IMG/VR virus record: IMGVR_UViG_3300046535_002009
Location: 32,001 to 96,000 of that record
Direction: 5' to 3' (one strand)
Origin: a virus
Length of the DNA stretch: 64,000 nt
Both the position numbers and the translations under genes were made by a program. Positions 29,146-57,970 of the stretch are shown piece by piece. Numbering within the stretch: the stretch's first letter is position 1; each line of letters opens with the position of its first letter. Under the pieces are notes generated by a model. The model did not search any database. It was not told where the DNA came from and saw only the letters and a list, made by a program, of their open reading frames with translations.

Positions 29146-32100
29146 TCATGAACCGCCGTAGGCGCCGAGGACAGTGACGGGGACGACGCGGAACCCGGTG
29201 CTGCTCTCGCCGTTGTCGGCCTTGACCCACATGACCCAACGGTCGGGGTCCTCCTGGTCCTCGTACCAGGTGTAGTCGGTGCCGTCGCCGTGCTCGGCCC
29301 GGTGGTCGTCGCGGCAGTGCGCCTGGGCGTCCTCTCGGGCGGTGTAGGTGTCGAGCGGGATCCCGCCGCGCTCGGCGCGCCATACGGTGACCGCGAGCCC
29401 GTCGACGTCGAGTCTCAGGGCGGCGGCGATGGTGGCCGCGAGCTTCGTCGCTTCGTCCTCGTCCATCGCGAGGACGATGGTCCGGCCGTCGAGGAGGCGC
29501 AGCGGCGCGTGCAGGGACGCTCCGAGCTCGGTCTCGGGCCACTGCAGCTCACCGGTCCAGCGAGCGGTCACCGGGGCGCTGACCGTGTCCGGGGCGGCCT
29601 GGCGCTGCGCCTGGTGGGCGAGCTGCCGGTGGAGGATGTCGACCTCGTTGAGGAGGTCGGCGATCGCGGCCTCGGCCAGGGAGTTGGCCACGTACTCCGG
29701 GACCTGCCCCGAGTAGAGGCGATCCAGGCGGGCGCGGGCGTTCGCCTCGGCCCGCTCGATGAGTTCGGCCCGGGTGCGCCGCTCCCCCGTGTCGAGGCGG
29801 GCGCGCTCCTCGCGTAGCTTGTCGACGATCTCGCGCTCCATGGCGACGCTGAGTCGGGCCGTGTGCCGGCCGTGCGAGAGGTAGCCGACGAGGGTGTCCT
29901 TCTTCTGGTGGAAGTAGAAGCGCTTGCCCTCGTGGTCGGCGATGCGGTCCCAGGCGTTGCGCTGCTCGTCGGGAACGTCGCCGTGCCAGAACAGGTCGCG
30001 GTGGTGGTGCTCGCGGCGGGCGACGGCGCCGAGCGCCTCGCAGGCGGCCATCCAGTGCGCGGTGTCGACTGGGTGGCCGTCGGCCTGGAGCTGGGCGGCA
30101 CGGGCGGCGAGGCCGGCCGGGGTGGGCAGGTACTCGGGGGCTTCGGTGTCCATGGGTGGTGCCTTCCTGATGGGCCCGCCCCGGCGGGGTGCCGGGGCGG
30201 GCGGTGGCGGTGGTTCGCGTGGGTGGTCAGCCGGCGTGGGCCGTGCGGCCGGCTGCCTGGTTCCACTCGGCGAAGGCCTTCCTCTGCATGCCGGCCGAGT
30301 CGTACGCGGCCATGGCGGTTGCTGCTGCCGCAGCGAGGGTGGCGTGCACCTGTGCGGCGGCGATGAGCCGGTCCGCCTCCGGGTTGGTCCCCTCGTAGGT
30401 GGTCGCCTTGCTCGCGAATGCGAGCTGGACGAGCTGCTCAGCTTCGGAGTAGTGCTCGGGCCCGGTGGCCATCAGGTGTTGTCCTTCGGGGTGGTGAAGC
30501 GGGGCGGGGTGCCGGCGGCCGCCCGGAGGGCGTCGACTCGGGCGGCGAGCCGCAGGATGTGGAGGGCATTGCGGGTGAGTGCCTGAGCCGGGGCCTCGAC
30601 GGGTTCGCGGCGGACGATCCCGGCGGCGAACTTCTGGGTCTGGCTGGCGACGGCCATCGCGGCGCGGGCGAGGTCGTTCTCGGCGCGCTCGACAGCCGCG
30701 GTCAGGTCGGTGCTCACTCGGGCCGCCCGGTGTCCGGCGCCTCGGTGGTGGGGCGCAGCTGCGCCCAGGCGGCGAGGATGGCGGGCAGCGCCGGGCACCA
30801 GGCGCCGGTGTCCCACATGCCGGCGCGGTAGCTGCTGCTGGCGCAGTCCTTCGGCCAGAGACCACACGCGCACTGGTCGTCGTGGTGATAGGCGTTGAGG
30901 GCCTGGTCTGCCACGTCGCCGAGGAACTCCAGCTCGGCGCGGGTGAGGACGACCGGGTCGGGCGGGGTGGGCTGGTAGCCGTCGATGTCGGTGCCGTCGG
31001 GGTGCTGGGCGTCGACGCCGCGAGGCGACCAGCGGAGCCGGTACTCGCCGAACGGGAAGTCCGCGGTGAGTTGCTGAAGGCCTGCCGGGCCGGTGATGCC
31101 GAGGAGCCGGCCGAGGCGGCAGCGGGGGTGGCACTCGTCGGGGTGGGTGAGGGTACGGCTGACGCCGTGGTCGCTGCTGATGGCGAACCGGTGCCAGGGC
31201 CCGGCCGTGAGGTGGTCGATGTCGATCACAGGTCCCAGTCCTCCGGGAGGTTGGCCGCCACCAGGTCGGTGACCCAGGCGGGATAGGTGTCGGGGTTCCA
31301 CAGCTCGCGGGTGACGGCCGAGGCGGGAAGGCCGAGTTGGCCGGAGACGAGGCGACGGCGGCCGGAGACCTTCACCCGGGCCTGGCCCGGCCGGTAGGCA
31401 GGGGGCCGGTCCTCGGGACGCAGCCACCGGTAGGTGATCTCGACGGTCTCCGGCACGACCGTGGGCGAGTACGGGACCGGCAGGTCGGGCACGTCGGTCA
31501 CCCGGAAGGTCAGCGTGCGGGTCTCCTCTGCCCGGGTGGCGCTCACGCGGTCCACCACGCCGGGAGGTTGTCCTTGACAAGGTCGCCGATCCAGGCTGGC
31601 CGCTCGTCCCGGGGGACGGTGGACCAGACCTCGACGCTGTCGCCGAGAGGGCTGACAGTGCCGTCCGGGTCGCGGTAGTTGCCGCGGACGTGCACCTCGA
31701 TCAGCCGCGTGACGGCGTAGGCCTCGTGCTGCGAGTACCGGATGGTGATCCGGTTCGGGACGATGCGGTCGCGGCCGGAGGTGACGTCGGGGGCGCCGTT
31801 CGGCAGGTCGAGGAGGAGGCGCTGCTCCTCGCTGCGGGGGACGGTGGCGACGGTTGCGGTGGTCATCGTGTGTCTCTCGGGTCGGGCCGGGCCGCCCATT
31901 GCGGGGCGGCCCGGCGGCGGTCAGAGCGCGTTGTAGGCCTGGATGCGGGCGATGTCCCGGCCGGGCAGGGCGGTGGCGGGGTCGTGCGGGTCCATGCGGG
32001 CGGTGCCGCAGGCGGCGCAGGAGACGGCGCCTCGGGGCGTGGCGTCCCACCAGTTGTGGTCGTCGTAGGGTTCGCCGGTCGGGCACTTCTCGGCGGCCCA

Positions 32101-51781: not shown

Positions 51782-53314
51782 CTACGTCGCGACGGGCTCC
51801 AGGACCTTGGGCCACTCCTCGAACCCAGGCTGCCCGAAGAAGATCAGGTTCACCCGGGGCCCAACCGGCTGGCCGTGACCCTTCCTCAACGCCGGCAAGA
51901 CCTCGACCCGCAGGACCTTGCGGATGACGTGGCGCTTCTGCTCAAGGACGAGCTCCTCCTCGTCGTTCCACATCTCGTCCAGCGCATCCGGATCCATCCC
52001 GATGAGACGGTCCAGCAGCGGGTCACCCACCGACAGAAGCCCCTTCACGATGGCCTCGGACGCCCGGGCCAGCGGGATCAGCCGCTGCTCCAGCTCGGCG
52101 AGCGAGGCGACGGTCAGGCCGGGCAGGCCGGTCACCGGGTCGAACTCGGTCGCCCGCGCCCGCGCGTCTCGGAGCTGCTCGGTGATCGCCTTCAGCTTGG
52201 CCCGCTCCCGTTCCAGTTCACCGCTCGACGCCTGTCGGCGCATCGCCGCGGCTGCCTTCTCGGAGGACAGCCACTGCAGCAGGGCCTCCTCGACGTAGGC
52301 CTCCAGGAGCTGCTTCATGATGGACAAGTGCTCCACGCGGCACCGGTAGAGCGCGCCACGGCGGTACTTGGGCTGTGCCAGCCGCACCGTCATCGTGCTG
52401 TTGCGGATGTCCACGTCGGCACGGCAGAGCGAGCAGAGCGCGATCCCGGACAGCAGGTGCTCGACGCCGGTCGTGTGGGTCGTCCTGCGGTCCGGGTCGT
52501 CGAGCATCCGCTGGACACGCCAGAAGACGTCCTCGTCGACGAGCCCCTTCCAGGCAGCCGGATACTCGGTGTCGTGGTGGACTCGGATCCCGATGTACGC
52601 CCTGTTCTGCAGGATCGCGCGGATGCCCTGGTCCGTCATCAGCGGGCGGCGGGGCAGCATGAAGGCGACGAGGCGCTTGATGGAGATCTTCTGGTCCGCC
52701 ATGTTGAACAGCTTGACGAGTACGGGCGCTTCGTCCGGGTGGGCGACCTGCCCGAGAAGTTCGCCAGTGTCCGGGTCATAGACCCGCTTGAAGCCGAAAG
52801 GCGGGGTGCCGGTCATCCAGCCCCGCTGGGCGCTGAGGCGTGCGGTCCGGACGTTGCGGGCGATGATCGTGTCGCCCTCGCCCTCGGACTCCACGGCGTC
52901 CCGGGCGGTCTCGCGCCGGTCGGATGCCTTGGTGAGGTCGTAGACCCGGCCGTCGTAGCACCAGAGGACGCCGGTCTCCATGCACAGCGCGCGGAGCCTC
53001 ACGTACCCGTCGAGCGTGCGGTTCGTGCGGGACCTCTCGGCGTACACGATCACGTCGATTTTGCCCGCGCGGACGTCTTCGACCATACGCTCGTACTCGT
53101 CACGGACCTTCGTGGCGCGACTGCTTGCCGAACGGTCGCGGTCCTCGTAGAAGTCGACAATCTCCCAGCCGCGCTCGTTGCACTCGGCGCGGCACTCGGC
53201 GAACTGGTCCTTGATGGATCGTCCGCGGTAGCGCGGGTCTCGAGATGCCCGACCATACACAGCGGCCCGCAGCGGGCGAGTCGCCTGCGCGGGCACCGAG
53301 TACAGGTAGTTCAT
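51782..53314 (-). CDS. int: Large serine recombinase (integrase)
   Basis: YGRASRD catalytic Ser, S...Q...C, D..RSAS, SRTNR, G.PPFGF, N.AYIG, LLSG...C..C zinc ribbon, coiled coil. Confidence 0.93.
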   Translation of the reverse strand: MNYLYSVPAQATRPLRAAVYGRASRDPRYRGRSIKDQFAECRAECNERGWEIVDFYEDRDRSASSRATKVRDEYERMVEDVRAGKIDVIVYAERSRTNRTLDGYVRLRALCMETGVLWCYDGRVYDLTKASDRRETARDAVESEGEGDTIIARNVRTARLSAQRGWMTGTPPFGFKRVYDPDTGELLGQVAHPDEAPVLVKLFNMADQKISIKRLVAFMLPRRPLMTDQGIRAILQNRAYIGIRVHHDTEYPAAWKGLVDEDVFWRVQRMLDDPDRRTTHTTGVEHLLSGIALCSLCRADVDIRNSTMTVRLAQPKYRRGALYRCRVEHLSIMKQLLEAYVEEALLQWLSSEKAAAAMRRQASSGELERERAKLKAITEQLRDARARATEFDPVTGLPGLTVASLAELEQRLIPLARASEAIVKGLLSVGDPLLDRLIGMDPDALDEMWNDEEELVLEQKRHVIRKVLRVEVLPALRKGHGQPVGPRVNLIFFGQPGFEEWPKVLEPVAT

Positions 53315-53347
53315 GGCCAGTCAGCATAGGGGGCTACCCCTGACAGC

Positions 53348-53399
53348 AATACCCCTCTTTAACAAATCTGCGTGCGCCGCTTTTGGAAAAGGGGGTATT
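53348..53399. other. Candidate attP site
   Basis: 52-bp AT-rich imperfect inverted repeat AATACCCCTCTTTAACAAA...TTTTGGAAAAGGGGGTATT (14/19 paired) just upstream of int. Confidence 0.65.
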
Positions 53400-53441
53400 T
53401 AAACGTGCAGGTCAGGTCGATAGGGCGCGGTACGCAGCACA

Positions 53442-53475
53442 AAGGGCCGTTCACCTGGCGGGGTGAACGGCCCTT
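53442..53475 (-). terminator. Intrinsic terminator
   Basis: 14-bp stem AAGGGCCGTTCACC / GGTGAACGGCCCTT just after the stop at 53486. Confidence 0.75.
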
Positions 53476-53485
53476 CGGGCACCGG

Positions 53486-53893
53486 TCAGGTCGTGCCGGT
53501 GGAGCACACGAAGATCATGACGGCCAGCGATCCGCACAGCCGGTTGACGAGTTCGCCGAGCTGCGCATGGGAGGCCTGGACGAGGTCCACGCTCTCGGAC
53601 CAGTCGAGCTCGTCGAGCTGCTTGCGCGGTGCACAGCCGGACAGCCTGATCATGTCGGCCAGGGCCCCACGGAGGCGCTCGACCAGATGGATCAGATCCC
53701 CATCGTCCGCGGAGTGGAGGTCGGTCCTTTCGGCCTCGCGGAGGTCGGCTCGCGCCATGGCGATCCGCTCGACGGCGAAGTCCGGGCGCGGGAAGGTCGG
53801 GCGTTCTGTGGTCACCGGGCTGAAGGGCTGGAAGCCGACGGGGGAGGCGAGCGCGGCCGAGCCGCGCTGAGGGAACGGCAGAGGATTCGTCAT
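53486..53893 (-). CDS. Helical hypothetical protein with internal duplication
   Basis: DL..A....LIHLVERLRGALADMI versus DL..A....LGELVNRLCGSLAVMI; GGAGAG RBS. Confidence 0.6.
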   Translation of the reverse strand: MTNPLPFPQRGSAALASPVGFQPFSPVTTERPTFPRPDFAVERIAMARADLREAERTDLHSADDGDLIHLVERLRGALADMIRLSGCAPRKQLDELDWSESVDLVQASHAQLGELVNRLCGSLAVMIFVCSTGTT

Positions 53894-53969
53894 TCGGACT
53901 CTCCGTCCCCGACGGCCGGACCGTTGCAGGTGCGCTTACGCGCCTGGCGGCCCGGCCGACGTGCTGGGG

Positions 53970-54149
53970 TCAGCCGCCCCAGTTCGTGTCCATCGGCTGG
54001 TACGGAGTCGTGTCCGTGTCGCCCGGAGTGGGCACGGCGATCTTCACGGTCGGCGAACTTGCGGAGCTCAGCTCCTCGGCCTGCGCGGCGGCGGCCGGCA
54101 GGGCAATCAGCGCGGCTGCAGCGAGCAGCACGCTTGCGGTCTTCTTCAT
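53970..54149 (-). CDS. Secreted 59-aa peptide, putative signalling pro-peptide (not in the ORF track)
   Basis: MKKTASVLLAAAALIALPAAAAQA|EELSSASSPTVKIAVPTPGDTDTTPYQPMDTNWGG; AGAGGAG RBS; Sec signal with AQA cleavage site. Confidence 0.8.
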   Translation of the reverse strand: MKKTASVLLAAAALIALPAAAAQAEELSSASSPTVKIAVPTPGDTDTTPYQPMDTNWGG

Positions 54150-54416
54150 GATTCTCCTCTGTGTTCCCTCCGGTGCCGCTGGGGCGGCACTGGGTGGTCA
54201 TAGGACATGTGGCGACGCGCGCCCGTGTCAACATCCGCCCCGTTTCGGTTGAGTGACAGACTGCCGATGCCTTCGCGCGGAAGGCGTGGGGCCCGGTCCG
54301 ACGTGGTTGATGGTTCATCCACCCGCTCCGCAACGATCGCGCACGGATAGTTGCCGGACAAGACGATCTGTGGTGCATTTATCTGCGACTGCATAAAGAC
54401 GCAGAAGGGCTGAAGA

Positions 54417-55382
54417 GTGAGCGACCTTGGTGTCGTGCCGGCGAGCGCGGTGATCCCTGACGATGCACGGGAGTTGTACGCCCGGATGGCTGGCTTGGGG
54501 GAGCAGCCCGGGCCCGATGACGACGCATCGCTGCATCTGCTGCTCAGCCTTGGCCTGGTCCGGCAGGACGTCAGCGAGGGCTACCTGCTCGTCGATCCGC
54601 AGTACGTGGGCGCTCGCTGGGAGGGCTCGTTCTACACCAGCGCGGCACGGATGCTGGAGCAGGCGGCGACCGTCTCCGAGGCGCTTCGCCCCCTTCGGCA
54701 TGCGTTCGACAATCGTTCGTCCGAGTCTGCCGGCCTGATCGAGTACCACCGGGGGTCGGAGGCCATCAACTGGCGGGTGGGGCAGGTACTCGGAGGCTGT
54801 TCGAGTGAGCTGCTGGTGTGCCAGCCCGGTGGTCCGCGGCGGCCGGAGATCCTCCAGGAGACCGCACAGCGGGACCTGGAGACGCTGAACCGTGGCGTGG
54901 CGATGAAGACGATCTACCACGACCACGCGCGAGCTGGCGCGTCCATCGACGACTGGGTCAAGGTCATGACCGACGCCGGGGCGGAGATCCGGACCCTCGA
55001 CGAGAAGTTCGAGCGGATGTTCATCATCGACCGGCGGATCGCGGTCGTCCCGGGGGACGACATCCTCACGACGAGCTCGGACGCAGTCGCCTACATCGTG
55101 AACGACAGTGGGGTGGCACGGTTCCTGGCCCGCCAGTTCGAGCGGGACTGGAACCGTGCCCGCGCTTGGAGCGAGACGGCGAAGGCGGAGGTGTCGCTGA
55201 CCGGTCGGCAGGCCGCCGTCCTGCGAGGGCTCGCGGCGGGTGACGGCCAGCAGCTCATTGCCCGCCGCCTGAAGATCAGCCAGCGGACGATGGCTGACAC
55301 GATCTCCGAGCTGAAGGCGCTGTACAACGTCACGTCGCTGTTCCAGCTTGCGTGCAGCTGGACCTCGGCGGGTGGCGTGTAG
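54417..55382 (+). CDS. LuxR-type regulator with N-terminal wHTH and central TrmB/PLD-like sensor domain
   Basis: L..LGLV; CQPGGPR; GVAMKTIY; RMFIIDRRIAVV; FERDW..A; LTGRQAAVLRGLA.G....IARRLKISQRT. Confidence 0.85.
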   Translation: MSDLGVVPASAVIPDDARELYARMAGLGEQPGPDDDASLHLLLSLGLVRQDVSEGYLLVDPQYVGARWEGSFYTSAARMLEQAATVSEALRPLRHAFDNRSSESAGLIEYHRGSEAINWRVGQVLGGCSSELLVCQPGGPRRPEILQETAQRDLETLNRGVAMKTIYHDHARAGASIDDWVKVMTDAGAEIRTLDEKFERMFIIDRRIAVVPGDDILTTSSDAVAYIVNDSGVARFLARQFERDWNRARAWSETAKAEVSLTGRQAAVLRGLAAGDGQQLIARRLKISQRTMADTISELKALYNVTSLFQLACSWTSAGGV

Positions 55383-55384
55383 CG

Positions 55385-55597
55385 TCAGCTCTCCCCGCCT
55401 CCTCTCAGGGCCGCGGCCAGCCGATGGGCTGTCTCGGCAGTCGCGGAGCCGAGGTTCACCAGGGAGAAGTCGGACATGATTCCGATCATGTCCACGCCCA
55501 GCGACGGCAGGATGATGCCCTGCTCCCTGAGCGCCTCTCGCAGATCCTCGACTGCGTCCTGGGCTTCCTTCCATGCATCCGGTACCGACTCAGCCAC
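55385..55597 (-). CDS. Small Streptomyces-type hypothetical protein (paralog A)
   Basis: LREAL...GIILPSLGVD...LVNLG.....A.RLAAAL. Confidence 0.7.
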   Translation of the reverse strand: MAESVPDAWKEAQDAVEDLREALREQGIILPSLGVDMIGIMSDFSLVNLGSATAETAHRLAAALRGGGES

Positions 55598-55706
55598 GTC
55601 GTTGCTTCTCTCTGTACTTGGCCTGGATACATCGCATACCCAGGCTGATTGATTTACCACGCGGTGGTAAGGACTGAAAGGGGTTATGGGCCCTAGTCGT
55701 GGAGGG

Positions 55707-55946
55707 GTGCCCACCGATGATCTTCCCGACTACGTCCGACATCACCGCTGGCTGCTCGGCAGCCGACTGCGCCAGACGCGCCTAGAACAGGAGTTGACCC
55801 AGGAGGACCTGGCCCGCATGACCGGCGTGGACAGCAAGACCATCAGCCGGACCGAGAACGGGCACCACAACGTGGGGATCGATCTGGTCGCACGGCTGGC
55901 GCATGCCCTCGGCGTTCCGAGCTGGACGCTGTTCGAGGAACGCTGA
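55707..55946 (+). CDS. XRE-family HTH regulator
   Basis: LTQEDLARMTGVDSKTISRTENG. Confidence 0.88.
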   Translation: MPTDDLPDYVRHHRWLLGSRLRQTRLEQELTQEDLARMTGVDSKTISRTENGHHNVGIDLVARLAHALGVPSWTLFEER

Positions 55947-55968
55947 CCCAGGGCCGGTTGGCTACCGG

Positions 55969-56175
55969 CTAGCTTGCGGGCCGGAGAGCCTCGGCCAGGA
56001 GGTGGATTTCGCGCGCGACCGCGCGCCCCAGGTCGACCATCCACTCCCCCGGTCGCGCCCTGGACGGACGCACCTCCAGGGACGGTAGGACGATCCCATG
56101 TTCAGACAAGGCGGACTTCAGCTCACGGAGCGCACGTTCGGCCTCCACCTTGCTGGTCGGCTCGTCGGCGGTCAC
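55969..56175 (-). CDS. Small Streptomyces-type hypothetical protein (paralog B)
   Basis: LKSAL..HGIVLPSLEV...MVDLG......LLAEAL. Confidence 0.7.
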   Translation of the reverse strand: MTADEPTSKVEAERALRELKSALSEHGIVLPSLEVRPSRARPGEWMVDLGRAVAREIHLLAEALRPAS

Positions 56176-56626
56176 CGGCGGATCTGCCTGTTCCGGTAGG
56201 CCTCGTCGAACGAGTCCCAGACCACGAGGTGGCCGTCCTCGGCGTACGGATGGCCGTCGGGCTGAAGGACGTACCAGCCGCGACCCGGTCCTCTGTAGGG
56301 CTCGACGCCCTGGCCCTCGATCTTCTCGGGCAGCACCGGGGCCGGCACGGGCTGGCAGAGGCGTCGGCTGTCGGTGCGTCGAGGCTCGATCATCACAGGC
56401 CACCGTCCCGGCCCGCCGTGGCTGCGGCGCGGCGGGCGACGAGGCAGCGGGTGCAGGTCACGGTCTCCCAGTCGTGCGCGACGCCGCACACGCCGGGCGT
56501 GGAGACGACGCCGTCCGGGTGGAGCGGCGGGTCGGCGTCACCGCAGTGAAAGCACGCCCGGCCGTGGAGGCGCGCGGGGCTGATGTCCTCGTCGACCAGC
56601 GGCAAGGAACGGTCGGTATCTGTCAC
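56172..56626 (-). other. Two small genes (56172-56396, 56393-56626)
   Basis: Overlaps; LHGRACFHCG...TCTRC zinc motif. Confidence 0.55.
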
Positions 56627-56682: not shown

Positions 56683-57867
56683 TCAGACAGCTTTCGCCCA
56701 GCGGGCGAAGGCGAGGAGCCGCTCGTCGCGGCCACGGTCGAGTCGGACCATCGTGGCCAGCTCTGCCCGTACCTGGCCGTGCTCACGGACGTGCTGGGGC
56801 GCGATCGCCCGGGCGGCCTGGAGGGAGTCGAGGGCGTGGCCGGGCCGCCCGAGCTGCATCTGGGCTCGGCCCAGGTCGATGTAGTAGTGGCTGCGCCGCT
56901 CGGCGCCGAGGCTCGGAGGCGGGGCCCAGGAGCGGGCGGCGGCGACGGCGCCTAGGAGGTCCTGCGGCTCTCCGAGTTCCACGGCGACCGACAGGCGGTG
57001 AATCTCGACGGAGTGGGGGCCCACCGCGGTGCCGTCGTAGAGACGCTCCGGAAACGTCCGGGCCAGCGTGCCGGCCTCGGTCAGGTGGGCGCGCGCGGTG
57101 TCTGCGTCTCGCATGCGGCCGGCGACGACGGCGGCTCGCATGTGCAGCGCGGCCGCGGCTGCGGCGAGGGGACCGGTGCGAGGGGAAGGCATCCGGTCGG
57201 CGGCGGCCTGAAGAGCGCGCAGGCCGGGGGCGAGCTGGCCGCTGGCGAAGAACACCTCCGTCCTGACGTATGCGGCGGCGGCGGCCAGCGCGGGGTCCTC
57301 GGCGATGGAGGAAGCCCAGCGCATCAGCTCGACGAGCCTTCCCGACAGGTCCCGGTATCCGTGCTTGTAGGCGACGGCGTCCGCGCTGCGGACCGCGAGC
57401 GCTAGCAGGTGCGCGGCCCGTTGACGGTCGGCGCCGGCGGCCTGGTCGACGGCGCGGAACAGCTCGGCCAGGAGCGGCGCGATCGTCTCTGCAAGCTGGC
57501 CGTAGCGGGAGTTGACCCGGTCGTCTGTGGCCGCATGGACGGCGGCTGCGAGCTGGGCGAGGGGCCGGACAGGGCCGTCGTCCGGCAGGTCGTAGGCGGC
57601 GATCACGGACTGGAGGCCGGGGATTGCGAGGTGCACTCGGCTCTCGGTGCGGCCGGGGCCGCCGAGGAGTTCGTCCGCCGTGGTCTTGAGGTGGCGAGCG
57701 AGCGCGTCCAGCACGCTGTCGCTCGGGGACCGCTCGCCGTCCTCGACCTTGCGGATCATGCTGGTCGAGACGCCGGATCGCTCCTCCAGCGCCCGGCGGC
57801 TCAGACCGCACGCGCTCCGGGCGGCCTTGATGCGCAGTCCGACTTCGGTGGCGATACGACCGGGCAT
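56683..57867 (-). CDS. XRE-family HTH regulator with long helical C-terminal domain
   Basis: GLRIKAAR...GLSRRALEERSGVSTSMIRKVEDG; ERRSHYYIDLGRA; A..IAPQ. Confidence 0.87.
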   Translation of the reverse strand: MPGRIATEVGLRIKAARSACGLSRRALEERSGVSTSMIRKVEDGERSPSDSVLDALARHLKTTADELLGGPGRTESRVHLAIPGLQSVIAAYDLPDDGPVRPLAQLAAAVHAATDDRVNSRYGQLAETIAPLLAELFRAVDQAAGADRQRAAHLLALAVRSADAVAYKHGYRDLSGRLVELMRWASSIAEDPALAAAAAYVRTEVFFASGQLAPGLRALQAAADRMPSPRTGPLAAAAAALHMRAAVVAGRMRDADTARAHLTEAGTLARTFPERLYDGTAVGPHSVEIHRLSVAVELGEPQDLLGAVAAARSWAPPPSLGAERRSHYYIDLGRAQMQLGRPGHALDSLQAARAIAPQHVREHGQVRAELATMVRLDRGRDERLLAFARWAKAV

Positions 57868-57970
57868 GGGCGAGGGCTCCGTTCCGTGCGACACCACGAC
57901 GGTACCGGCGGGCCCGGACGTGGTGTGCCGGAACGGCCCGGCGGCTCGGGAGTGCCCAGGCGGCGGCTGG

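Follow-up and report, generated by a model that had tools for sequence, protein, structure and literature searches.

A D-x-x-W pro-peptide gene and its divergent TrmB-like/LuxR regulator in a temperate actinophage: a candidate peptide-receptor signaling pair

Near the integrase gene of a temperate actinophage, a small gene for a putatively secreted peptide lies back to back with the gene of a cytoplasmic DNA-binding regulator. Do these two genes encode a signal and its receptor, or a regulator and a peptide with some other task? We addressed this question in a stretch of 64,000 nucleotides (hereafter the window), positions 32,001 to 96,000 of the 110,060-bp virus record IMGVR_UViG_3300046535_002009 of IMG/VR. 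A preliminary description of the window had proposed a phage peptide-signaling system made of a 59-aa pro-peptide ending in DTNWGG, a divergent regulator as receptor and a small downstream gene as effector. Our computational analysis suggests that the 59-aa open reading frame (ORF) and the regulator are a cognate peptide-receptor signaling pair, with a probability of roughly 0.55. This reading is carried by the recurrence of the same two-gene cassette in phages, prophages, plasmids and chromosomes, and by the anatomy of the peptides.

The pro-peptide gene and the regulator gene

The elements of the two genes are as follows.

53970..54149, minus strand: pro-peptide gene, 59 aa (ORF and translation, in-frame GC content at third codon positions (GC3), D-x-x-W family pairs)
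54078..54149, minus strand: signal-peptide-like N-terminus, aa 1-24, with MKK, a hydrophobic core and AQA before the predicted cleavage (sequence features)
53973..53990, minus strand: predicted mature signal core DTNWGG, the final six codons GAC ACG AAC TGG GGC GGC, followed by TGA
54154..54159, minus strand: ribosome-binding site GAGGAG, 4 nt 5' of the ATG (read from the sequence)
54417..55382, plus strand: cytoplasmic regulator, 321 aa, predicted peptide receptor (Pfam, AlphaFold2, Foldseek, homologues)

The 59-aa ORF opens with MKK and an Ala/Leu-rich hydrophobic stretch, continues with a predicted cleavage site between AQA and EE and a Ser/Pro/Thr-rich spacer, and closes with the tail PMDTNWGG directly before the stop codon. 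The ORF on the minus strand (54149-53970), its predicted signal peptide with the cut between AQA and E, its spacer and its tail had all been read in the preliminary description, as had a strong ribosome-binding site, and each is present, the GAGGAG lying 4 nt before the ATG; relatives of the ORF carry AAGGGA at this position. We observed a GC3 of 0.85 in the called frame compared to 0.61-0.63 in the other two frames of the same strand, in a genome with a GC content of approximately 72%. In the whole 110-kb genome this is the sole signal-peptide ORF in which D-x-x-W is repeated or lies at most three residues from the end, and it adjoins the single copy of the regulator gene. A tblastn search with the 59-aa peptide against 50,697 phage records gave no match. 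Since these peptides are too short and too variable for sequence search, the family was found via the regulator. Two other assignments of the peptide were tried and rejected: it reached only 17.1 bits against the WGxxGxxG family (NF041742; NCBIfam cut-off 35), and it is not a lipoprotein, as no lipobox Cys follows the hydrophobic core.

The regulator has neither a signal peptide nor a membrane segment. It consists of a winged helix (aa 15-58), a long helix (aa 61-98), a PLD-like alpha/beta domain (aa 108-247) and a LuxR/GerE helix-turn-helix (HTH; aa 260-317). In Pfam it scored 28.4 bits against GerE/LuxR (PF00196, cut-off 23.5) and 20.2 bits against Regulator_TrmB (PF11495), slightly below the cut-off of 22.2. 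The AlphaFold2 model, with a predicted local distance difference test score (pLDDT) of 88.5, contains the winged helix, the long helix, the alpha/beta domain and the C-terminal HTH, and Foldseek placed TrmBL2 at the top (E 1e-13, approximately 236 columns), followed by TrmB (3qph, E 7e-8) and the PLD-family nucleases Nuc and PLD3. Pfam, AlphaFold2 and Foldseek agree with the winged-helix TrmB/PLD-like/LuxR architecture proposed earlier. The proposal that the receptor stands outside the RRNPP/TPR class also held, the only Pfam matches being GerE and a weak TrmB, and the structural matches TrmBL2, TrmB and the PLD family. Among the closest database homologues is P0002 (74% identity). Clusters at 50% identity that matched the winged-helix and PLD-like part numbered 474 when the threshold was E <= 1e-30, and 2128 when it was E <= 1e-10.

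At the spacing of the catalytic H-x-K-x4-D of PLD superfamily enzymes, the PLD-like domain reads F-x-R-x4-D (F198, R200, D205), a degenerate motif without His, the two being equated by spacing and not by structural alignment; R200 and D205 were invariant in the first regulator alignment. Because the motif differs from the catalytic one, the PLD-like domain is very unlikely to be an enzyme. As modeled, the regulator has a one-component ligand-sensor architecture, TrmB-like, with a LuxR HTH in place of the sugar-binding subdomain. It shares with TrmB and TrmBL2 the winged helix, the long dimerization-type helix and the PLD-like alpha/beta effector domain. Unlike TrmB, which senses sugars through an extra C-terminal subdomain, it has a GerE/LuxR HTH at residues 260-317, and its linked gene encodes a putative secreted peptide instead of a sugar transporter. 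The C-terminal HTH and the arrayed paralogues without a linked signal gene recall the LuxR one-component regulators or "solos", from which it differs in having no acyl-homoserine-lactone-binding, REC or other classical N-terminal domain. A co-fold of the regulator (41-row alignment) with the 35-aa pro-region scored 0.03 compared to a mark of 0.32, a result that weighs neither way.

Recurrence, anatomy and evolution of the pair

IMG/VR, GTDB genomes and JGI metagenomes were scanned with regulator alignments, which yielded 140 loci (designated below by L numbers). The preliminary description had expected secreted peptides next to the regulator homologues, and in 117 of the 140 loci a small ORF that encodes a signal peptide and D-x-x-W lay no more than 700 bp from the homologue. 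The density of such ORFs was 0.62 per kb within 700 bp compared to 0.031 per kb beyond 1.5 kb, approximately a 20-fold difference, and the linkage was kept down to approximately 28% regulator identity. The pairing is not a matter of chance. Loci without a peptide were mostly cut contigs or Kitasatospora arrays in which five paralogous regulator genes lie in tandem. L005, which at first seemed to lack a peptide, encodes a precursor of 95 aa with DTTWG in three copies. Six pairs were added later; the resulting 123 pairs take in gp29/gp30 of Streptomyces phage Chymera, nine IMG/VR contigs, five Kitasatospora prophages and many chromosomal and metagenome loci. Further IMG/VR scans with a second alignment and with a single protein revealed no new loci. 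One provirus record with a 65% regulator relative (L002/L141) is cut at the regulator start, and its peptide region lies outside the record.

D-x-x-W-ending peptides beside such regulators, mentioned in the preliminary description, are documented by the 123 pairs and by three of four sampled Streptomyces plasmids. As for the idea of a phage peptide-signaling system, the pair is indeed phage-borne in the window, but it is not phage-specific, since most pairs are chromosomal, in Kitasatospora and Nocardioidaceae. In the 117-pair set, the two genes are divergent in 12 phage-type loci and convergent in 105 chromosomal loci.

Chymera is the sole cultured phage record with a regulator homologue (29% identity). 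Its regulator gene gp29 is divergent from gp30 (59 aa), whose signal peptide ends in AQA and is directly followed by DPGWG, with NDPGWG at the C-terminus, and the pair adjoins the integrase gene. A six-frame search of 167 Kitasatospora genomes revealed five prophage copies with regulator identities of 41-65% and divergent peptides ending in NDTHWGG (two), NDTNWGG, QDSTWG and NDTFWGN. These copies lie at prophage ends, one beside the host gene sdaA and one near dnaG, with holin-like genes near two of them. The tails of the closest relatives are DTHWGG, DTNWGG, DSNWGG, DTYWGI, DSTWG and DTFWGN. A regulator homologue was found in 73 plasmid records; the three of four sampled Streptomyces plasmids (88-130 kb) that carry the pair stand outside the 123, and their precursors have two or three copies of DTAWG (one copy being DTGWG) or DSAWG. 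On a 220-kb linear Streptomyces plasmid (L158, NZ_CP108254.1), a regulator homologue had no D-x-x-W peptide within 2.5 kb, and a DUF4344 metallopeptidase gene lies 500 bp 3' of it.

Two chromosomal arrangements were also observed. The five-paralogue TrmB/LuxR arrays, all genes on one strand (L055-L057, L063, L064, L067, L068 and L076, from the Kitasatospora griseola group and relatives), had no D-x-x-W peptide gene in the DNA examined around them; these arrayed regulators may be "solo" or eavesdropping receptors. In the Kitasatospora loci of the L010-L054 type (for example L022:4000-8000), a plus-strand regulator gene and a convergent minus-strand D-x-x-W peptide gene are followed by a plus-strand gene for a nucleoside 2-deoxyribosyltransferase-like protein of 127-170 aa (Pfam PF05014, 26.6 bits, below the cut-off) and by two to four more paralogous regulator genes on the minus strand.

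The 123 pairs gave 119 distinct peptides, with 163 cores and a median length of 47 aa, and the signal-peptide-like N-terminus has the same build in all family members. Over 117 pairs, we counted one core per precursor in 90, two in 19, three in 5 and five to six in 3. Copies inside one precursor are mostly identical and cores differ among loci, approximately 50 core types being found; as read from the precursors, these hallmarks support the likeness to pheromone precursors. D is followed by Thr or Ser in 71% of cores, and W by Gly in 50%. Each of the 17 phage-type precursors has its last core at the C-terminus. In the majority of Nocardioidaceae-type precursors, the core stands 0-2 residues from the A-x-A-like site closing the signal peptide, with 5-15 residues after it that often include two Cys. 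Since the core is C-terminal in the former and follows the signal peptide in the latter, the common unit would be the pentapeptide D-x-x-W-x. The peptide sequences support D-x-x-W as the conserved, repeated unit and putative functional core of the two-gene cassette. Nocardioidaceae-type peptides (for example L039, L045, L053, L078 and L083) are 37-50 aa long and have DSSWG or DTSWG directly after the signal peptide, then C-G-G-C, C-P-G-C or G-C-C, which suggests a disulfide-bonded mature product. By eye, the upstream gene in several of the Nocardioidaceae-type metagenome-assembled genomes resembles the C-terminal part of GTP-dependent PEP carboxykinase.

This anatomy bears on two alternatives. 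The invariant Trp in a short repeated core could indicate a precursor of the ribosomally synthesized and post-translationally modified peptide (RiPP) or cofactor type, whose Trp is chemically altered while the regulator senses the product or something else, and pheromones of the ComX type are indeed Trp-modified. This we consider a very remote alternative, given that no radical SAM, prenyltransferase or cyclase gene was linked in any context examined and that a Sec-type signal peptide is unusual among RiPP leaders. The second alternative, a chance open frame, could appeal to the abundance of short ORFs in high-GC DNA and to the fact that the 59-aa ORF was missing from the first ORF track. It is contradicted by the ribosome-binding site and the coding GC3, by 119 distinct peptides of like design at the equivalent position, by in-frame spacer indels that keep the tail (L088 compared to L089) and by the RefSeq annotation of such genes on plasmids and in Chymera. 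Its chance is close to nil, and for practical purposes it is refuted; by its sequence features, the 59-aa ORF is a real gene.

A quick maximum-likelihood tree of 110 regulators placed the phage and viral loci, all of divergent gene order, on deep long branches, the window grouping with L003 and L088/L089 (SH-aLRT 97). The chromosomal loci, of convergent order, formed a Kitasatospora clade (35) and a Nocardioidaceae-type clade (63). Cores follow regulator subclades and vary strongly among close Kitasatospora relatives. When the two DNA-binding domains were controlled for, core distance correlated with sensor-domain distance (partial r 0.46 over all pairs, 0.35 and 0.57 within clades; permutation p <= 0.0005), and the reverse partial correlation was negative. 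This apparent co-divergence gives modest support to the pairing. In a Kitasatospora prophage (L155:9445-9606), the peptide ends in NDTNWGG and has the same core as that of the window, with regulators only 50% identical; a shared "dialect" with cross-talk is possible on this basis.

The region between the two genes has the following elements.

54150..54416, no strand assigned: divergent control region of 267 bp, common to the peptide and regulator genes (coordinates)
54331..54343, plus strand: box CAACGATCGCGCA, candidate promoter or operator element of the regulator gene (conserved in the clade)
54382..54405, plus strand: palindrome TCTGCG-N12-CGCAGA, candidate operator or hairpin of the 5' untranslated region (12 nt 5' of the regulator start)

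The intergenic region is exactly 267 bp long, as first described, and contains several palindromes. Elsewhere in the 110-kb genome no copies of these were found at 0-2 mismatches, save loose GC-rich matches to one of them. TCTGCG-N12-CGCAGA is the sole match to its own pattern in the genome when at most one mismatch is allowed, and L004 and L006-L008 have related TGCG...CGCA elements at the corresponding site. Five of the eight clade members (window, L003, L088, L154 and L155), whose intergenic regions are otherwise diverged, have the sequence CAACGATC 73-99 nt 5' of the start of the regulator gene. A scan of 53300-56000 for sigma-70 promoters, the consensus of which fits high-GC actinomycetes poorly, detected none.

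The phage element and neighboring genes

The neighborhood of the pair contains these features.

51782..53314, minus strand: large serine integrase (Pfam Resolvase, Recombinase)
53428..53484, minus strand: terminator-like hairpin closing the leftward unit, ending approximately 40 bp from the attP candidate (-38.1 kcal/mol, z -5.5)
53486..53893, minus strand: 135-aa four-helix-bundle protein, clade-specific accessory, candidate output (AlphaFold2, few homologues)
53910..53961, minus strand: long RNA hairpin between the peptide stop and the 135-aa gene, possible terminator or attenuator (folding)
55686..55946, plus strand: small XRE-type HTH protein, 86 aa, possible co-output (Pfam HTH_31, HTH_3)
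56683..57897, minus strand: XRE HTH and TPR regulator, 404 aa, rival candidate receptor (Pfam HTH_31, TPR_2; phrog_5823)

A terminal direct repeat of 148 bp with 98% identity (genome positions 1-147 and 109909-110056) was observed, and the 110 kb probably represent a whole genome, either circular or terminally redundant. The integrase gene has replication genes on its left; on its right are the genes for the XRE-TPR regulator, a HAD hydrolase, an endolysin and a peptidase. Because these genes flank it, the cassette is phage DNA at the attP-proximal end. The host of this temperate phage is probably Kitasatospora. Four rhizosphere metagenome runs contained short low-depth contigs or fragments, some of them identical to the window, from which no peptide variants emerged; no RNA data set appeared among the public runs.

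The preliminary description had placed a small helical gene and a terminator approximately 40 bp before the attP candidate, and both were recovered, the former as a four-helix model and the latter as the hairpin of -38.1 kcal/mol. The AlphaFold2 model of the 135-aa protein is a four-helix bundle with pLDDT >90 for aa 37-133. It had no significant structural match, the ESM Atlas search gave nothing informative, the protein matched no family in Pfam, NCBIfam or PHROGs, and a pattern search of IMG/VR found no relatives. L153 (45%) and L157 (40%), two of the eight other close relatives with readable flanks, have a homologue in the same place and orientation; a further relative, P0063 (69%), is known from the protein alone. 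No homologue of the gene was found in the rest of the D-x-x-W family. From this distribution, the 135-aa gene appears to be a clade-specific accessory, not a family trait. Of the proposed receptor/pro-peptide/effector trio, the first two members are therefore conserved as a pair, but the third is limited to these close relatives. For the 86-nt stretch with the 53910-53961 hairpin, the folding energy is -50.3 kcal/mol (z -3.9), a value that no sequence out of 200 shuffles reached.

The small XRE gene lies 3' of the regulator gene in seven phage-type loci (window, Chymera, L003, L004, L153, L155 and L157), its homologues in Chymera, L003 and L004 being 35-42% identical. Two minus-strand small ORFs, 55385-55714 and 55969-56403, have a common motif, L-R/K-E-x-L-x-E-x-G-I-x-L-P-S-L. 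The first of them is flanked by the regulator gene and the small XRE gene, and tblastn detected homologues of it at the corresponding site in L154 and L153; by eye only, a 76-aa ORF of L157 is similar to it. On sequence grounds, these ORFs appear to be a real, unnamed small gene family.

The XRE-TPR regulator raises another alternative, in which the peptide is a signal sensed by a different protein, either this regulator or a host membrane sensor. An HTH and TPR protein 2.5 kb away has a build that resembles RRNPP receptors; its sequence homologues were found in L004 (70%) and L003 (32%) only, and L155 encodes a protein with a matching layout (HTH_31 and TPR_12). We nevertheless judge this alternative highly improbable. 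A tblastn search at E <= 1e-4 detected no XRE-TPR homologue in any of the 105 chromosomal pairs, nor in the majority of viral loci, and the TrmB/LuxR regulator is the only constant neighbor of the peptide. XRE and TPR-like regulators are moreover very common in Streptomycetaceae, where they are usually linked to other partners. When L004:7606-8835 and window 56683-57897 were compared, the XRE-TPR proteins were 70% identical, yet the TrmB/LuxR regulators were only approximately 33% identical; by this comparison, the difference indicates a mosaic region with module exchange.

A possible signaling role and its meaning

The signaling reading follows from the Sec signal, the variable spacer, the repeatable short unit, the locus-specific variants and a constant regulator in two gene orders. 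We infer the following route in all its steps, from export and processing through uptake and binding to the direction of regulation and the output for the phage. The pro-peptide would be exported via Sec and cleaved by signal peptidase after AQA, and extracellular proteases would trim the 35-aa pro-region to a peptide of approximately 5-6 residues with C-terminal D-T-N-W-G(-G). This peptide would build up with the number of cells expressing phage genes, would be re-imported by the host oligopeptide permease and would bind the non-catalytic PLD-like domain of the regulator. Binding would alter the occupancy of the 267-bp region by the winged helix and the LuxR HTH and would reset the unit of the peptide and 135-aa genes, the unit of the regulator and small XRE genes, or both. 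Because the cassette is attP-proximal, next to the integrase gene, its most likely use would be to sense the density of kin phages or lysogens and to bias lysogeny, its maintenance or induction. We hold a role of the pair in the lysis-lysogeny or induction decision only tentatively, with the odds against it.

In the strongest competing reading, the peptide gene is a target of the regulator, or the two are simply inherited together, and the peptide is an extracellular effector and not a ligand, for example a bacteriocin-like or surface-active peptide, a phage-receptor blocker or a factor interfering with host development. Divergent genes with a common control region are typical of a regulator and its target, and the C-x-x-C or CC after the Nocardioidaceae core is found in many antimicrobial peptides; the location at a prophage end would suit such an effector as well. 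Against this, the 105 chromosomal loci are convergent, with no common promoter region, and the genes are still linked; no immunity or export genes are linked to them; and multi-copy cores with variable spacers point to the release of 5-6 residues, short for a bacteriocin and typical of pheromones (PMC11343458). We consider the effector alternative unlikely.

Several observations nevertheless weigh against a signaling pair. The prophage-end position, typical of lysogenic-conversion genes, also fits an ordinary gene of that kind. The 5-15 residues, often with two Cys, after the Nocardioidaceae core fit a longer, possibly disulfide-bonded product, for which import as a pentapeptide is less obvious. 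No permease, protease or clear output gene was linked to the pair. Partial Mantel tests on related sequences are liberal, and co-inheritance of neighboring genes alone yields some correlation between core and sensor domain. Since the window and L155 share DTNWGG at 50% regulator identity, specificity, if any, does not follow from overall divergence in a simple way. When the N-type and H-type groups of the closest relatives were compared for specificity-determining residues, 3 sites were obtained, compared to 1-6 in control groupings.

Compared with known systems, the best reading is that the D-x-x-W system would work like arbitrium or Rap-Phr by analogy, while being homologous to, or a member of, neither. 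Like arbitrium (AimR-AimP-AimX of Bacillus SPbeta-like phages), it is phage-borne here and has a short pro-peptide with a predicted N-terminal secretion signal, whose presumed active part is the last six or so residues, an adjacent gene for a cytoplasmic DNA-binding regulator, peptide "dialects" that differ between related elements and, in some members only, a further small gene 3' of the peptide gene. Unlike arbitrium, it has a receptor without TPR, unrelated in sequence and fold to the AimR-type HTH-TPR proteins; its genes are divergent here instead of co-directional, its host phylum is Actinomycetota, and most of its members are chromosomal. With the Rap-Phr and other RRNPP(A) systems of Bacillota, it shares a gene for a pro-peptide of Sec-exported type that directly adjoins the gene of a presumed intracellular receptor (within 700 bp at 117 of 140 loci), an active unit of about five residues, C-terminal in the Phr case, receptors without a peptide gene in arrays, a distribution over chromosomes, plasmids and phages, and some tandem-copy precursors, which are known from phage Rap-Phr (PMC11343458). 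It differs from them in the absence of a TPR receptor and in a D-x-x-W core common to the whole family, Phr peptides having no universal motif.

Full-text literature searches revealed no published description of a D-x-x-W peptide/regulator family. To our knowledge, peptide pheromones with cytoplasmic receptors are regarded as a speciality of Bacillota, and we know of phage-to-phage peptide communication only from Bacillus phages. Signals of Actinomycetota are described as typically enzyme-made small molecules (PMC10075063). The family may be the first quorum-sensing family of Actinomycetota to use genetically encoded peptides, with a non-RRNPP D-x-x-W receptor, and its phage members a second, independent "arbitrium" that counts kin; we would not bet on this wider claim. 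The receptor would then combine a TrmB-like winged helix, a dead PLD domain and a LuxR HTH, and would recognize D-x-x-W pentapeptides, which we regard as conceivable and short of an even chance. Its users would be temperate actinophages, prophages and phage-plasmids, with possible cross-talk with host chromosomal D-x-x-W systems, a picture that we offer with similar reserve.

If the signaling reading is true, the regulator would represent a new receptor class for short peptides, with a readable "code" that already has approximately 50 core variants, and would open a route into population-density sensing by temperate actinophages and by Streptomyces and Kitasatospora prophages and plasmids. The BldK literature describes a long-unexplained, oligopeptide-permease-dependent extracellular signaling in Streptomyces development, and the D-x-x-W peptides would be candidate ligands for such signaling. 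The reach would be broad, since homologues of the sensor part of the regulator fill the 2128 clusters (50% identity, E <= 1e-10) and thus form a large family.

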